Origin: an uncultured Giesbergeria sp.
GTDB taxonomy: Bacteria > Pseudomonadota > Gammaproteobacteria > Burkholderiales > Burkholderiaceae_C
NCBI GenBank assembly: GCA_947624595.1
Contig: CANQLC010000015.1
Location: 4,005 to 68,004 of the forward strand
Length of the DNA stretch: 64,000 nucleotides
Direction: 5' to 3'
The notes below the pieces were generated by a model. It did no database searches. It was not told the DNA's origin and worked only from the letters and a program-made list of their open reading frames with translations. A program made the translations under genes and the position numbers. Shown piece by piece: positions 1 through 7,198 of the stretch (the stretch's first letter is position 1; the number at the start of each line of letters is the position of its first letter).

Positions 1-1698
1 CAGTAGCGGCACATGGCGCGCGCCTTGCACGCGCTCTACACCATCGAGTTGGGCGATTTGTTTCACCAGCGCTGCGCTGAAGACCGGCGTATCGCTGCTG
101 CGCGCGCCGGCGCTTTGCACGTACAACGGCGCGGGCAGCACGGCGTCCAACCAATCCATCACCGAGCCGCGAAAGCTGCTGACCATCACCGTCAGCGCCA
201 CGGCCAAACTCAGGCTGGCGACGACGCCGCCCACGGCAACCGCCGCTGTGCCGCGCGCCCGCCGAGCGCGCTCCAGCGCCAGCAGCGGCAACAAGCGCTG
301 TTGCACCAGCGGCTGCAGCCCGCGCAGCAGCAGTGCCACGCCCCACGGCAATATCGCAATGCCACCGACCAAGCCCAGCGCAATCGACACATAAGCAGCA
401 ATAGGGATGCCAAATATGGCTGGAAGCCATACCAGTCCTGCGCTAGTAGCTATCAAAATAATACCCCAGCGGCCGGACGGGGCGCGTGTATCGCTCAAGC
501 CCAGCCCTTTGAGCGTTTGCGCCGCCGGCAATGCCTGCGCCGCCCGCGCCGGCCACCAGCCGCCTAGCAGCGCCGCGCCCGTGCCCAGCGCGCCATAAAC
601 CAGTGCTGCCGCCGTGCTGAATTGCAGCACCGGCTGGGTACCAGAAAAATAACCGCCACCCAAATCACCGCCCAGCAACTGCAGTGCGCCCGCCGCCAGC
701 GCCGTGCCCAGCGCAATGCCGCAAGCACTGCCGAGCAGTCCCAGCGCCAGCGATTCAATCAGCACCAACAACAAACGCTGGCGCGGGGTCGCGCCCAGCA
801 CCGCCAGCAGCGCAAACTGCGGTGCGCGCTGCGCCACGCTGAGCGCCAGCACCGAGAACACTAAATACGCGCCGGTAAACAGCGCCACCAAGGCCAGCAC
901 TGTCAAATTCACCCGATAAGCACGTGAAAGTTGGCTGACGCTTTGCGCAGCGTCGCCCGGCTCGGCCCAAATCAGCCCCGTTGGCCAATTGGGCGCAGCT
1001 TGCAATTCTTGGCGAAAGCTGTTGGCCAGTGCGCCGGGGCGCAATTGCACGTCGATACGGCTGAGTTCGCCGATGCGCCCGAGCAGCTCTTGCGCCGCAC
1101 CAATGTCCATGACTGCCAGCGCTGCGCCGCCTGCGGTCACGGTGCCAGCGACGCGCACCGGCAGGCGCTGTAAGCCCACTTGCAGGGTAAGTTGCGGCGC
1201 GTTGGTCGGCGCTTCATCCACCCCCAGCGCCTGGCGTGCCGCGGCGTTGAGAAACACCGTGGCGGGGGCAAACAGCACAAATCGGTCAGGCACCAGACTG
1301 GCAAACGGACGCGGCATCAGATCGGGCGCCATGCGCGGCAGCAGCAGCGCGTCAGTGCCGATCAGGCGCAGCGGGGTTGGCGTGGTGCTGGCCGTCTTGG
1401 TAGGCAAAGCCAGCACCGACACCTCTAGCACCGGCTGAGCACGCGCCACTTGTGGATGGTTGGCGATGCGGGCAAACAGCGCTTCATCCAAACCGCCTTG
1501 CGCCGCGCGCAATTGCAAATCGGGCTGGCCGCTGACGCTGCGCAGTGCCTGCGCAAACTCCCCCAGCGCCGAGGCGTTGATGGTATGTACCGCAAACGCC
1601 AGCGCCACCCCCAGCACCACGGCGCACACGGCAGCCGCGCTGCGCCACGGGTGGTGGCGCAGTTCTTGTAGAGACCAAAGGCGAAGCAAAGCCAGCAT
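1..1698 (-). CDS. ABC transporter permease, FtsX/MacB-like (truncated by window edge)
   Basis: ATG at 1698, reads [37 protein letters not shown]..., hydrophobic TM segments, open frame to position 1; absent from ORF track because no stop in window. Confidence 0.8.
412..464 (+). repeat. REP-like element copy inside permease CDS
   Basis: aaatatggctggaagcca...gcgctagtagctatcaaaataatacc; translated on - strand as [14 protein letters not shown]. Confidence 0.7.
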
Positions 1699-1844
1699 GG
1701 CGGGTATTGTGGCGCGTCGTGCCAGCGCCGCCCTCACTTCTGGAACGCAAGAATTACACCAAGCTACACTCGCGCAGCGCTTTACACCGTGCCCAGCACT
1801 GGCGACACCGCGCTTTTTTTGAATATACAAAAAGGAATTCGACC

Positions 1845-4800
1845 ATGAAAAATTCATGGAAATTTTTGAGCGGCTTGCGACGCACACTTTGGGTGTCCGT
1901 CGCTGGCTTAGCTCTGTCGGCTACCAGTGCTTCGGCCACTGACCGAGTGCTGCTGGGTGAGCCAGCCGGTGTAGGCAAAGCCGCACTAGCGTCGCCGGCG
2001 CTGAGCGCGGCGCTGCAAGAACTGGCCAGTACGGCGCAGAAAAGCGGCTCAGTGCGCGTGATTGTCGGCGTTCGCTCAGCGTTTGCCCCAGAGGCCAAGC
2101 TGCCTGTGGCCGCAGCAGCCCAGCAGCGTAATGAAATTGCCAGCGCGCAATCTGCCGTGCTGTCGCGCCTGCCGCAATTGGCGCAGAAAAACAATGCCGT
2201 GCGGCGTTTTGCCAGCATTCCGTACTTGGCCATGTCAGTGACGGCGCAGGATCTGAAAGCGCTGGAGCAAATGCCCGAAGTCACTTCCATCCAAAGGGAC
2301 AGGGCAGTGCCTGCGACGCTGGTTAACAGCGTGCCTTTCATTGGTGCCACCCCGGCTTTGAACGGCGGCTACAGCGGCGCTGGGCAAGCGGTGGCTGTGC
2401 TGGACACGGGCGTAGAAAAAAACCATCCACTCTTGGCAGGCAAAGTGGTGGCAGAAGCTTGCTACTCCACTACAGACGCTAGCGAAGGCGCTAGTTCTGT
2501 TTGTCCTAGCGGAGTGGCTGAATCCATCGCTGCTGGCTCTGGCGCTCCTTGTGTTGGTGCGGATAGTTGTTCACATGGCACCCATGTGGCCGGCACTGTG
2601 GCGGGTAACGGTGGACCTAGCAACGCTCCTGCTGGTGTTGCCAAAGACGCCAGCATTATTGCGATGCAGGTGTTCTCCAAGTTCAGCACCGAAGATGCTT
2701 GTGGCGTTGGTGAGGCACCTTGTGCGCTGACGTTCAACTCTGACCAAATCATGGCGCTGGAGCAGGTCTATGCGTGGCGCAACACCCACTCTATAGCGGC
2801 GGTCAACATGAGCTTGGGCGGTGGGCGCTACGGCAGCCAGTCCACTTGCGATGCGGACAATGGAGCGGTTAAAGCGGCGATTGATAACCTGCGCGCTGTC
2901 AATATTGCCACCATCATTGCTTCAGGCAACGAAGGTTACGTTGACTCGATGGGAGCGCCGGGTTGTATTTCTAGCGCTATCAGCGTTGGCTCTACGTGGG
3001 CCAAAGCAGGCACTGATAGGTGTGATGCGGTTTCTCCGCCAACGAGCTTTTTAGCAGACGACGTTTCGTGCTTCTCTAACTCCACGAAATTTCTGAGCCT
3101 GCTGGCACCGGGTTCTCAAATCAACTCATCGGTTGTCGGTAGTTTGTATGAAAACTATGCGCAATGGTCCGGCACCTCTATGGCCACGCCCCATGTGGCG
3201 GGTGCATGGGCTGTTTTGAAACAGAAAAAACCTACTGCCTCGGTCGAAGAAGTCTTCAATGCTTTCGTGACTACGGGGAAATGGGTCACTGACCGGCGCA
3301 ATGGCATTGCCAAGCCGCGCATCCAAGTAGCGCAGGCTTTGGCTGCAATCAGTGGCAACGTTAGTTATGCTTTAACCGTGACCAAGTCGGGTGGCGGTGT
3401 GGTGACGAGCCAGCCCGCTGGCATTGATTGCGGCACAACTTGCTCCAGCACCTTTGGCGCCAATAGCAGCGTGACATTGACCGCCGCTGCTTCTGGCAGC
3501 GGCGCTTTTACCGGTTGGGGCGGCGCTTGTGCCGGCAGCACCAACACTTGCACCGTGAGCATGGACGTTGCGCGCAATGTGAGCGCTAGTTTTGCGGCAA
3601 CGCCCAACACGCGGCTGGTGGCTTTGGGCAAATCAGGCCAAGGGACGGTGACCAGCTCGCCTAGCGGCATCCAATGCGACTCTTCTTGCGGTGGCGTCTC
3701 GGCGAGTTTTCCTGCTACCAGCGCCATTGTTTTGAGCGCTAGCCCGGCTGCCGGCAATACCTTTGCCGGCTGGAGCGGCGCTTGCAGTGGCGTGGGCCAG
3801 TGCAACATCGCTGCGGGCACCAGCATCGCTAACGTTACCGCTATTTTCAATGCCAGCGGTGGCGGCAATAACAGCGAGCCGGTAACGCTGCTGAATGAAA
3901 TGGGCCTTTCGGGCGCTGCTGGCGCTTCTTCGCGCTTCACCGTGTCTGTGCCTGCGAGCGCGACCAATTTGGTGGTTACCGCCTCAGGCGGTACAGGCGA
4001 CATCGATTTGTATGTCAAATTTGGTGCTGCGCCGACCTTGACGTCTTACGACTGCAAATCTGATCAGCAAGGCAATGCAGAAAGCTGCGGCATGGCAACA
4101 CCCCGTTCGGGCAATTACCACATCTTGCTCAACAGCTTTGCAAGCTACAAAAACGTCACGTTGCGCGCCACCTACCGCCTGCCCAACACCAAAGCCAGCT
4201 TGAGCGTGACCAAGACGGGCGCTGGTCAAGGCGTGGTGCAGTCGGTATCGAGCTTTGCCGCGCAAACGTTTTCAGTGGACGGCTTGTCTCGTCCCAGCAT
4301 CGTGGGCGGAGCGCCTGCCCAACAAGGCGCTTGGCCTTGGCAAGTGCGTTTGAGCATCACTACCCACGAAGGCACCTTCTTGTGCGGCGGCTCGCTGCTG
4401 TCTGACCAATGGGTGCTTACGGCGGCGCATTGCATTGAGGACGCTGGTGCCACTGTCAGCCCAGCCAACATTACGGTGCGCGCTGGTTCGCTGCAGCAAG
4501 ACAGTGGCGGCGTAGTAATGGGCGTGGGCCGCGTTATCAAACACCATGCCTATGAGCCAGTGACGACCGACAACGATATTGCTTTGCTGCGCTTGTCCAG
4601 TCCTCTGCCGTTGTCAAAAACCATTAGCCCGATAGCGCCCCTGTCTGCCTCGCAAGAGCAGCAACTGGCTGCTGCCAATACCTTGGCAACCGTCACCGGC
4701 TGGGGAACTACCAGCCCCGGCGGCACTGCTTCAGCGACTTTGATGCAGGCGCAGGTACCGCTGATAAGCATGAGCGACTGCGCTAACCAATCGGCTTACG

Positions 4801-5900
4801 GCAGCGGCCAGTTGTCGGACAACATGATCTGCGCTGGCTACAAGCAAGGCGGCAAAGACGCCTGCCAAGGTGACAGCGGCGGCCCTTTGGTGGTGCCTAA
4901 TGGCCAAGGCGGTCATGTGCTGGCAGGCATTGTGAGCTGGGGAGAGAGCTGCGCGGCACCCGACTACCCCGGTATCTATACCCGGGTTGCCAATTACCAG
5001 CCTTGGCTGCAAACACACACCCAACTGGCCTTGGGCGCGCCTTTGCTTGACTGTGGCAGCGTTTGCGTGGCCAGCGTGGAGACCAACACCACCATCACCT
5101 TGCGCGCCCAAGCCAGCAACGGCAGCAATTTTGCCGGCTGGAGCGGTGCTTGCAGTGGCACAGCCGATACGTGTACGGTGACGTTGAACAGCGCTCGCAG
5201 CGTGACGGCCAACTTCAGTAGCAACGGCTTTGATCCACTGCACGAGCACGCTGATTTCGTCACACAACAGTACCAAGACTTGTTAGGCCGCAAGCCCGAT
5301 AGCGCCACGTTGGATGCCTGGGTGGGTTTTCTGCAGGCGGGTGCAGTGACACGCGCACAGTTCATTGAGTCACTGATGAATTCCAACGAATTCAAGGGCC
5401 GCCTTGACCCGATCGTGCGCCTGTATACCGCCTACTTCAAACGCCTGCCGGACTACAGCGGCCTGATGTATTGGCTGAACCGCATGTACCCCGATAGCGG
5501 CGCTGGTTTGGATTTGTGGAAGGTATCTGACTCTTTTGCCCAGTCAGAAGAATTTATCAATACCTATGGCCCGCTCAACAACACCGCTTTTATTACCCGT
5601 GTCTACCAAAACGTGCTGGGCCGTGATCCGGAGGCTGAAGGGTATGCGTATTGGATGGGTCGCTTAAACAGTGGTATGCCGCGCGGCGAGGTGATGTTGG
5701 GCTTCTCAGAATCGGCTGAGAACCAACAGGCCAATGCCTCTTCGCAGCTTGTTACGGCGGTCTATGTCGGTCTGTTGCGACGCACCCCTAATGGTGCAGA
5801 ACATGCCCGGGCGCTGAGTGATATCCAGTCGGGCCGCGCCAGCGTGCTCAACCTGATCGATAGTCTGCTGAGGTCGTCCGAGTACGCTGCACGCTTTTAA
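1845..5900 (+). CDS. Secreted multidomain protease: signal peptide, I9-like prodomain, S8 subtilisin, InlB-like B-repeats, PPC domain, S1 trypsin domain, DUF4214 repeats
   Basis: AAGGA before ATG 1845; S8 motifs [24 protein letters not shown]; S1 motifs [28 protein letters not shown]; repeats xTVTKxGxGxVTS...FxGWxGAC; C-terminal QxY...LGRxPD / F..SxEF repeats. Confidence 0.88.
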
Positions 5901-5927: not shown

Positions 5928-5982
5928 GCTATAAATTTAATAGCCCTTAGCGCTTGTACTGCAAGCTCTAGGGGCTTTTTTA
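5928..5982 (-). repeat. REP-like element copy, followed by T-run (may double as terminator of protease gene)
   Basis: gctat-aaattta-atagc ccttagcgcttgtactgcaagctctaggggctttttt. Confidence 0.65.
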
Positions 5983-6015
5983 TACACCTGCTCACAAGCC
6001 TTAGTAGCCCTGCGT

Positions 6016-6041
6016 CTTGAAGATCCCGGCATTTGCCCTAT
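6016..6041 (+). promoter_or_regulatory. sigma32 (RpoH) promoter of hsp20
   Basis: CTTGAA-N14-CCCTAT, close to the RpoH consensus CTTGAA-N13-14-CCCCAT, upstream of a small heat-shock gene. Confidence 0.75.
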
Positions 6042-6068
6042 GTGCAGATGAGACTGGCTCAGTCCAGT

Positions 6069-6096
6069 CTTTTTTTGTCAACCCTGTCAAAAGGAG
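6069..6096 (+). promoter_or_regulatory. Putative fourU-type RNA thermometer occluding hsp20 RBS
   Basis: CTTTTTTTG (6069-6077) pairs with CAAAAGGAG (6088-6096), UUUU opposite AGGA. Confidence 0.5.
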
Positions 6097-6103
6097 ATTT
6101 GTC

Positions 6104-6532
6104 ATGAATGCATTGGTCGGTCGTGGTGGTTTGTTGGATGATTTCTTCAAAGACATTAACCCCGGTTTTTATATTCGCCCGCTGCATGGTGACCCGCTGC
6201 CTACGCCGAGCCAGATTAAGGTCGATGTGGCGGAGACGGATACCGGCTATGTCATCAGCGCTGAAGTCCCTGGCGTGGCTAAAGAGGACATCCACGTTTC
6301 GCTCGATGGCAACGTGGTCAGCCTGCGCGCTGAAATCTGCCAGCAAGACAAGCAGTCCAAGGATGAAAAAGTGCTGCGCTCAGAGCGCTACTTTGGCTCG
6401 GTAGCGCGCAGCTTTCAGTTGCCCACCGATATTGATGCCGGGCAGGCCAAGGCCAAGTACGAGCACGGCGTGTTGACGCTGACGTTGCCGAAAAAGCTCG
6501 GCGGCACGGCGCAGCGCTTGGCGATTGAATAA
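6104..6532 (+). CDS. Hsp20/alpha-crystallin small heat-shock protein
   Basis: RBS AAGGAG; alpha-crystallin motifs AEVPGVAKEDI, ERYFGSVARSFQLP, AKYEHGVLTLTLPK. Confidence 0.93.
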   Translation: MNALVGRGGLLDDFFKDINPGFYIRPLHGDPLPTPSQIKVDVAETDTGYVISAEVPGVAKEDIHVSLDGNVVSLRAEICQQDKQSKDEKVLRSERYFGSVARSFQLPTDIDAGQAKAKYEHGVLTLTLPKKLGGTAQRLAIE

Positions 6533-6544
6533 CGCTCAGGCGCT

Positions 6545-7198
6545 TTAAGCTGGCGCGATGCCGTTAGCGCTCAAGCGCAGCACCCGGTCGGCGCGGGCAG
6601 CTGCGCTGTCTGAGTGCGTCACCAGCACCAGCGCAGCGCCTTGTTGACGGGTTTGCGCCAGCAGCAAGTCCATTGTGCGTGCCGCTGTGCTGGGGTCGAG
6701 GTTGCCCGTTGGCTCGTCGGCCAGCAACAGCGCGGGGCGATGCACCAGCGCCCGCGCCAAGGCCACGCGCTGCAGCTGGCCGCCGCTTAACTGCTGGGGC
6801 AGGCGTGCGCCCAAGTCATCCAAGCCGACCGCGTCCAGCATTTGCTGCACCCGCGCCGTATCCGGGCGGCCCAGCAGCAGCAGCGGCAGAGCGACGTTTT
6901 GCGCAACATCAAGGTGCGGCAACACGTGAAACGCTTGGAACACAAATCCCACCTGTGCGCGCCGCCACAGCGCGCGCTGGGTTTCGTCCAGCGTGCCTAA
7001 GTCGGTATCGCCGTGGGTAATGCGGCCACTGTCCCAGTCGTCCAGCCCCGCCAAGCAGTTGAGCAGCGTCGATTTACCCACTCCCGAGTCGCCGACGATG
7101 GCGATGAACTCCCCCGGCGGCACGCTGAAGCTGACGTTGCTGAACACCGCGCTGCTGCCGTAGCGCTTGCCCAAGTTGGTGACTTGCAGGGTGCTCAT
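6545..7198 (-). CDS. ABC transporter ATP-binding protein (LolD/MacB-like)
   Basis: Walker A GDSGVGKS, signature LSGGQLQR, Walker [13 protein letters not shown]; ATG overlaps miaA stop. Confidence 0.92.

Follow-up and report, generated by a model that had tools for sequence, protein, structure and literature searches.

A putative exported hetero-polyprotease zymogen joining S8 and S1A protease domains to a DUF4214 tail in an uncultured Giesbergeria sp.

Polyserases (TMPRSS9/polyserase-1, polyserase-2 and polyserase-3) carry several catalytic domains in one chain, each following an activation site, and polyserase-1 is processed into independent units (PMC1435904). In the present study we describe a bacterial gene that likewise encodes more than one protease domain. 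It lies in a stretch of 64,000 nucleotides (the window; assembly GCA_947624595.1, contig CANQLC010000015.1, positions 4,005 to 68,004 of the forward strand) from an uncultured Giesbergeria sp., and its product joins an S8 subtilase domain and an S1A trypsin-like domain to a C-terminal DUF4214 tail. One protein with such a tail is Psh of P. putida KT2440, an RTX-DUF4214 protein exported by a type I secretion system (T1SS), which is reported to bind the O-antigen of lipopolysaccharide (LPS) and to block phages; peptidases are among the cargo domains of DUF4214 proteins (bioRxiv 10.64898/2026.09.02.748959). Other papers note DUF4214 proteins only as extracellular or as encoded beside S-layer genes. 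Literature searches found neither a characterised bacterial fusion of S8 and S1 domains nor a characterised exported protein with S8, S1A and DUF4214, and no combination of Tryp and Subt domains is listed in the accessible portion of a 2008 survey of prokaryotic serine-protease architectures (PMC2605481).

We propose, with a probability of about 0.55, that the protein is an exported modular hetero-polyprotease zymogen for extracellular protein breakdown, which is cut at a linker and retained at the cell surface by the DUF4214 tail. The sequence anatomy and its conservation are directly observed; every step of processing, activity and localisation is inferred. After Sec export, one of the two type II secretion systems encoded in the genome would probably carry the precursor across the outer membrane. 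The I9-like propeptide would assist folding of the S8 domain and then be removed autocatalytically, as in other subtilases. A disordered linker would next be cut just before I819 (...SRPS/IVGG) by a non-trypsin activity; the simplest candidate is the broad-specificity S8 domain, working in cis or in trans. The new Ile N-terminus would pair with D1010 and thereby switch on the presumed Arg/Lys-specific S1 domain. The cut halves may stay joined non-covalently, via a split repeat, as a two-chain enzyme, and the DUF4214 tail would retain the enzyme on the cell surface, perhaps through the LPS O-antigen; DUF4214 may mark a shared set of tethered exoproteins.

The reading frame is open without internal stop codons from 1707 to 5900 of the window on the forward strand, and the likely start is ATG 1845, giving a 1351-aa product. 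Domains were called by a Pfam profile scan with curated cut-offs, to which NCBIfam added nothing specific. The order is a Sec signal, an I9-like propeptide, the S8 domain, two InlB-B (Flg_new_2) repeats, a PPC (pre-peptidase C-terminal) domain, the S1A domain, a third repeat and the DUF4214 tail (Table 1). The Peptidase_S8 profile matches residues 178-478 (E 4e-33, 115.4 bits vs. a cut-off of 21.8) and the Trypsin profile matches residues 819-1055 over its full length (220/220 positions, E 1e-67). PPC (PF04151) is found at residues 697-763 (55.1 bits, cut-off 25.9), Flg_new_2 (PF18998), a repeat of about 73 aa with two Cys pairs, in three stretches (52.9 bits, cut-off 23.6), and DUF4214 (PF13946) in two stretches (143.2 bits, cut-off 23.2). 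The Inhibitor_I9 match at residues 90-155 (E 0.057, 14.5 bits vs. 21.2) falls below its cut-off. A first-pass annotation had described one secreted polypeptide with a PPC domain and C-terminal DUF4214 repeats, and this description stands: the protein is encoded by a single open reading frame (ORF), a Sec signal peptide can be read from the sequence, the extracytoplasmic domains are disulphide-rich, the InlB-B and PPC spacers being rich in cysteines, and both PPC and DUF4214 lie above their Pfam cut-offs.

The same annotation had seen two complete proteases, and both catalytic sets are indeed intact and under constraint, S1 being the best-conserved and S8 the second best-conserved part of the protein in per-domain identity. 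All three subtilisin motifs are present, VLDTG with D187 (nt 2403-2405), HGTHVAG with H244 (nt 2574-2576) and GTSMATP with S445 (nt 3177-3179), and the S8 domain has the family's triad order Asp-His-Ser together with the oxyanion Asn (N362, nt 2928-2930). These four residues are kept in every homologue that covers the positions, among 24 S8+S1 homologues reaching down to 40% identity. The domain is a divergent subtilase, with a best E-value of 1.6e-19 against the PDB and of 1e-15 for subtilisin Carlsberg. The trypsin motifs TAAHC (H862, nt 4428-4430), DIALL (D911, nt 4575-4577) and GDSGGP (S1011, nt 4875-4877) are likewise all present. The Asp of DACQG (D1005, nt 4857-4859), previously assigned to the S1 pocket, aligns with the equivalent Asp of hepsin and is taken here to be Asp189 in standard chymotrypsin numbering. 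H862, D911, S1011, D1005 and D1010 (the Asp194 equivalent) are kept in all 24 homologues, and the equivalents of Gly216 and Gly226 (G1033, G1043) in all but one, which has Ser at the 216 position. The Asp189/Gly216/Gly226 pocket points to Arg/Lys specificity, as had been predicted, D1005, G1033 and G1043 being the residues expected of an Arg/Lys-specific enzyme.

Against the PDB, the trypsin domain matches hepsin, FXIa, kallikrein and trypsin (E 1e-54 to 1e-49, identity 36-39%), and these alignments start exactly at IVGG (residues 819-822), which is residue 1 of the mature chains. The AlphaFold2 (AF2) model of the domain has the double beta-barrel fold, with a Foldseek TM score of about 0.9 to FXIa, kallikrein and matriptase; a Foldseek search of the PDB with the whole model returned matches for the trypsin domain only and none for the multi-domain arrangement. 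As a side observation, vertebrate and insect domains of the TMPRSS9/polyserase type share 40-47% identity with the trypsin domain, an unusually high value between a bacterium and animals, which suggests an ancient horizontal transfer of the S1A domain.

The apparatus for zymogen activation appears to be in place, consisting of the Ile16-Val-Gly-Gly N-terminus and D1010. The residue preceding IVGG (P1) is Ser in the window protein, and among 22 other S8+S1 homologues it is Ser in nine, Thr in five, Gln in four, Lys in two, Arg in one and Met in one, while P2 is usually Pro. Ser, Thr and Gln are not residues after which a trypsin with Asp189 would be expected to cut, and self-activation is therefore unlikely in this clade. 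The 14-residue linker in front of IVGG is the least conserved segment of the protein in per-domain identity, and residues 805-818 are disordered in two AF2 models (predicted local distance difference test, pLDDT, 34-42 in one and below 50 in the other). The non-basic P1 and the disordered linker are what make the self-contained cascade proposed by the first-pass annotation a fitting idea. The trypsin domain contains exactly six Cys in three canonical pairs with none to spare, and neither the linker nor the hairpin upstream of it has a Cys, so that an activating cut would sever the chain without leaving a covalent bridge. With the chain cut in canonical S1A activation, the mature enzyme would probably not be a single bifunctional polypeptide.

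What could hold the halves together is suggested by the third InlB-B repeat, inside which the trypsin domain appears to be nested, with two strands before it and five after. Three InlB-like repeats had been reported earlier; three Flg_new_2 stretches are indeed found, but only two repeats are intact and the third is split around the trypsin domain. Its match covers profile positions 18-72 only. When the hairpin upstream of the linker (residues 783-804) is spliced to the post-trypsin piece, the product aligns colinearly with the intact repeats, with a 1-residue gap at the junction and a score 12-28 above that of the post-trypsin piece alone. In an AF2 model of residues 160-1351 (mean pLDDT 77) each intact repeat has seven strands, compared to 2 + 5 here. 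A focused model of residues 780-1130 (mean pLDDT 80.9, predicted TM score 0.70) gives pLDDT 74-84 for the hairpin and 79-86 for the five-strand part. The same cassette of hairpin, trypsin and five strands occurs twice in P0021, a relative of 1713 aa.

When 5.8 billion proteins were searched for homologues, about 25 clusters proved to share the domain set, their identity ranging from 95% to about 40%, and domain order is identical down to 43%. Named sources include 'Giesbergeria sp.', 'Burkholderiaceae bacterium', Limnohabitans and Halochromatium, and the public annotation of these homologues is just 'trypsin-like serine protease'. The ORF is uninterrupted in NCBI, ENA, JGI and Logan assemblies. 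In a survey of the genus with one genome per species (41 genomes), contiguous full-length orthologues were found in four (G231, 90% identity; G205, 74%; G204, 72%; G218, 60%), fragmentary ones in G215 and G234 and partial matches only in G219, G220 and G225, and there was no match in 31 of the 41 genomes. The full architecture was found in none of 200 other genera of the family. A chimeric assembly, which had been raised as a way in which the first-pass annotation could fail, is excluded by the contiguous orthologues in the four genomes together with more than 20 metagenome clusters. The gene is real and patchy in its distribution.

The protein is a member of a modular polyprotease family in which heads are swapped or a second trypsin is added. 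The earlier claim of an uncharacterised architecture accordingly holds in so far as no characterised example was found, but the design is not unique. Relatives of about 780 aa with the composition S8-Flg-PPC exist as complete genes at 52-55% identity (P0038, P0039), and P0018 (974 aa, also a complete gene) is S8-Flg3-DUF4214. Others carry a reprolysin-like metalloprotease in place of the S8 head, followed by Flg2, PPC, the trypsin cassette and the tail (P0028, P0029, P0031, P0035 and a gene of G219). The 1713-aa relative P0021 has a reprolysin-like domain and two nested trypsin cassettes, each preceded by Arg/IVGG, and the domain lists of P0136 (2219 aa) and P0145 (1709 aa) suggest a similar or greater number of catalytic domains; such chains are genuine polyproteases of bacteria. 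The stand-alone S8-Flg-PPC proteins P0038, P0039, P0060, P0063 and P0044 all have a short hydrophobic motif at the C-terminus (...YLLLLSD, ...NLLLLSQ, ...LMLMLD, ...NLLLLN), which may be an unrecognised sorting or retention tag replacing the trypsin-DUF4214 half. Close relatives show a mosaic of identity (alignment A1): P0005 is 98-100% identical to the window protein over Flg1-Flg2-PPC but only 80-81% over both protease domains, and for P0003 the values are 100% from Flg2 through repeat 3 and 91-93% for the propeptide and S8, which indicates intragenic recombination between alleles.

The DUF4214 tail is all-helical in the AF2 model, and its terminal EYAARF is conserved. A PDB search with the single sequence of the tail gave no meaningful match; a profile of seven DUF4214 sequences reaches ApcE phycobilisome-linker domains (E 4e-6). 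The window genome encodes about 11 further DUF4214 proteins, and the combination of Flg_new_2 and a DUF4214 tail is also found on a reprolysin-like metalloprotease and two other large proteins. The metalloprotease (C4:14272-16887) is a paralogue with a signal peptide, the reprolysin-like motif HEIGHAFGSDH, two Flg_new_2 repeats and a tail sharing 54% identity with that of the window protein, and both G204 and the P0016 contig have it directly upstream of the double protease. Surface tethering is inferred from the Psh preprint and from the recurrence of DUF4214 on the roughly 11 other large proteins of the genome. It is consistent with the location of two relatives, P0028 and P0029 (metagenomic contigs L037 1-14624 and L042 1-13058), inside a Wzm/Wzt O-antigen-type cluster, which supports a surface or LPS link without proving it. 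Two full-length GspD secretin genes above cut-off in the genome indicate that type II secretion is available. Export by a T1SS as in Psh was considered and rejected, as the Pfam scan gave no RTX or HemolysinCabind match and the protein has a Sec signal instead; T1SS genes do not adjoin the protease gene.

Several further observations concern the DUF4214 proteins themselves. Others in the window genome are located at C3:176-4471(-), C3:5837-8611(-), C8:2040-7421(-), C4:191701-194751(+), C3:159442-162909(-), C6:170369-173119(-), C6:178936-181821(-) and C26:813-4724(-). In some the domain is C-terminal, after repeat, FN3-like or poly-Pro regions. Five proteins of 900-1300 aa, four of them clear paralogues of one another, have DUF4214 at the extreme N-terminus and no signal peptide, and their export route may differ. 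The clusters on L037 and L042 contain Wzm, glycosyltransferases and genes for GDP-mannose and 6-deoxy-sugars, L037 also containing Wzt with Wzt_C and a methyltransferase, and the tails of P0028 and P0029 end in ...YTCP instead of ...EYAARF.

A number of points weigh against the proposed zymogen. Subtilisins usually prefer a large hydrophobic P1 rather than Ser or Thr, which speaks against S8 as the activator. A stand-alone trypsin paralogue of G218, which lacks an S8 domain, has the similar site NQPQ/IVGG with Gln at P1, so that an outside activator is equally possible and may serve all of these trypsins. A three-codon insertion (AQW), unique to the window allele, could impair the S8 domain. 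For the nested repeat, splicing the hairpin to the post-trypsin sequence did not make the Pfam match reach into the hairpin, although the match to intact repeat 2 is likewise confined to profile positions 22-71; the hairpin alone reaches a z of only 0.8-4.4 against the intact repeats, and its presumed packing against the five-strand half comes from predicted strands, not coordinates. With regard to tethering, LPS genes are not near the window protease gene, Psh is a T1SS/RTX protein and the window protein is not, and an O-antigen-binding role of DUF4214 in Psh is only suggested by its authors (bioRxiv 10.64898/2026.09.02.748959). We consider it doubtful that the more elaborate form of the proposal applies in full, namely that the S8 domain is a built-in activator of a trypsin domain unable to activate itself, that the cut chain is held together by beta-strand complementation, that the S8/S1 complex is displayed on the cell's own LPS and that DUF4214 is a lineage-wide retention module.

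The alternative that survives best is a polyprotein delivering two independent soluble proteases. A cut at the PPC domain or linker would let the S8-Flg-Flg-PPC part diffuse away as an ordinary subtilase while the trypsin-Flg-DUF4214 part worked on its own, and the two enzymes would share co-expression and co-secretion without any coupling or lasting complex. Secreted proteases typically lose their PPC domain, the two halves cannot be joined by a disulphide, and both S8-Flg-PPC (P0038, P0039) and S8-Flg3-DUF4214 (P0018) exist as complete genes. There is also a precedent in polyserase-1, from which separate protease units arise from one chain (PMC1435904). The hairpin of repeat 3, however, lies upstream of the cut site, is conserved with the cassette and is predicted as confidently as the rest of the repeat, which suggests that the halves remain docked. 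We regard independent release as a tentative possibility, with less than even odds.

It is quite unlikely that only one of the proteases is degradative, the other being a maturation or quality-control module or being inactive in this allele through AQW. In favour of this reading, the insertion is absent from all 18 homologues of alignment A1, and AF2 confidence is low at the loop (model block 271-280, pLDDT 55); heads are moreover exchanged in the family (S8 or reprolysin-like) with the trypsin cassette kept, a hint that the constant 'business end' is the trypsin. Nevertheless, the nine inserted bases keep the reading frame and the GTSMA motif, and no S8-bearing homologue departs from the S8 triad or the oxyanion Asn, in a domain that ranks second in conservation. 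An intracellular immune effector of the CARD-NLR operon type is highly improbable for a protein with a Sec signal, disulphide-rich InlB-B and PPC domains and a DUF4214 tail, whose neighbours are ABC transporter and Hsp20 genes rather than CARD or NLR genes and whose closest relatives are signal-bearing modular exoproteases. The fusion of two genes by misassembly or sequencing error has a negligible chance and is ruled out by the contiguous orthologues and their identical domain order.

Table 1 Features of the protease gene and its flanks (window positions)
Feature	Position	Strand	Basis or remarks
MacB_PCD + FtsX ABC permease, cut by window edge	1..1698	-	
Shine-Dalgarno-like AAAAGGAA	1830..1837	+	7 nt 5' of ATG 1845; read from sequence
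Whole gene, putative hetero-polyprotease precursor, 1351 codons + stop	1845..5900	+	Full-length homologues at 95-40% identity
Sec-type signal peptide, residues 1-31	1845..1937	+	Basic n-region K2/R12/R13, hydrophobic core, AXA site before TD; read by eye
Propeptide, I9-like, residues 32-160, tentative	1938..2324	+	Conserved in orthologues
S8 subtilase catalytic domain, residues 161-500	2325..3344	+	Pfam and PDB subtilase matches
Allele-specific 3-codon insertion A439-Q440-W441	3159..3167	+	Starts two residues before GTSMA, S442 between
InlB-B (Flg_new_2) repeat 1, intact, 7 predicted strands, 4 Cys	3360..3605	+	Profile 1-72 of 73; AF2 strands model 348-426
InlB-B (Flg_new_2) repeat 2, intact	3606..3860	+	Pfam, AF2
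PPC domain, internal here	3876..4184	+	Pfam
Beta-hairpin, residues 783-804, taken as first two strands of InlB-B repeat 3	4191..4256	+	Alignment, AF2
Flexible linker, residues 805-818, ending ...LSRPS/IVGG, cut expected after S818	4257..4298	+	Low pLDDT, low conservation
S1A trypsin-like protease, residues 819-1058	4299..5018	+	Pfam, PDB alignment, Foldseek
Last five strands of InlB-B repeat 3, residues 1066-1127 (PLLDCGSVC...ANFS)	5040..5225	+	Pfam, AF2
DUF4214 tail, residues 1135-1351, all-helical, about four YxxxLGRxPDxxG-type units, ends EYAARF	5247..5897	+	
Two terminator-like hairpins with T-runs, 5963-5977 and 6050-6071	5963..6071	+	3' of stop codon; consensus matches only
Hsp20 small heat-shock protein	6104..6532	+	
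ABC ATPase, partner of MacB/FtsX permease	6545..7195	-	

The host is a freshwater-type betaproteobacterium with a genome of 2.9 Mb in 32 contigs. The protease gene sits, together with the Hsp20 gene, in antisense orientation between an ABC ATPase gene and that of its MacB/FtsX permease (Table 1). It occupies the same position between ATPase and permease in G231 and G205 and is located elsewhere in G204 and G218, and according to the ORF lists the two transporter genes lie side by side on one strand in the protease-less congeners G002 and G210. The G+C content is 0.56-0.60 over the protease gene and 0.64-0.67 in the flanks. The differences in position between congeners and the low G+C indicate an accessory gene that was inserted into, and moved between, housekeeping loci. 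No ORF comparable to Hsp20 was found in the ORF lists of the orthologous loci of G231 and G205, and the Hsp20 gene seems to have entered this intergenic site independently, as a second insertion.

The protein is a new arrangement of familiar parts, each from a known family, rather than a new kind of system. Provided that both halves are active and coupled, the gene would be a compact natural two-step protease cascade, with convergent folds and complementary specificities. If the S1A domain is nested in a small beta-repeat, as it appears to be, a two-chain protease would be kept assembled in a new way, as a disulphide-free counterpart of the two-chain serine proteases of animals. DUF4214 is widespread and poorly understood, and an attached protease 'reporter' would make its surface or LPS retention easy to assay. 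The family, which mixes S8, reprolysin-like and S1 heads on Flg_new_2/PPC/DUF4214 scaffolds, offers a clear example of how domains are shuffled among the exoenzymes of environmental Burkholderiales. Should only the ordinary reading hold, the protein would be a nutrient-scavenging exoprotease.

Among known systems, the N-terminal half resembles the PPC subtilases. Deseasin MCP-01 (PDB 3vv3), which is among the PDB sequence matches of the S8 domain, shows the same order of signal, propeptide, S8, beta-rich accessory domains and PPC. Compared to the deseasin type, however, the PPC domain of the window protein is internal and is followed by a second, unrelated protease and DUF4214, and InlB-B repeats replace the usual spacers. 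Psh is likewise an exported protein with a C-terminal helical DUF4214 domain, but it has RTX repeats and uses a T1SS, whereas the window protein has a Sec signal and no RTX.

The trypsin half resembles animal enzymes. Hepsin, FXIa, plasma kallikrein and matriptase share with it the IVGG N-terminus, Asp194, the Asp189/Gly216/Gly226 pocket and three disulphides, and in both the animal two-chain proteases and the window protein, activation by cleavage ahead of Ile16 would yield a non-catalytic chain on the N-terminal side. In the animal enzymes the two chains are held by a disulphide of the Cys1/Cys122 type; the window protein has no such linking Cys, a split beta-domain being proposed in its place, and its P1 is Ser and not Arg or Lys. 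The polyserases are the best large-protein matches of the trypsin cassette (40-47% identity) and the closest concept. They repeat one S1 fold in eukaryotic membrane or secreted proteins, whereas the bacterial protein described here combines the convergent S8 and S1 folds in one precursor, with the trypsin domain apparently nested within a repeat.

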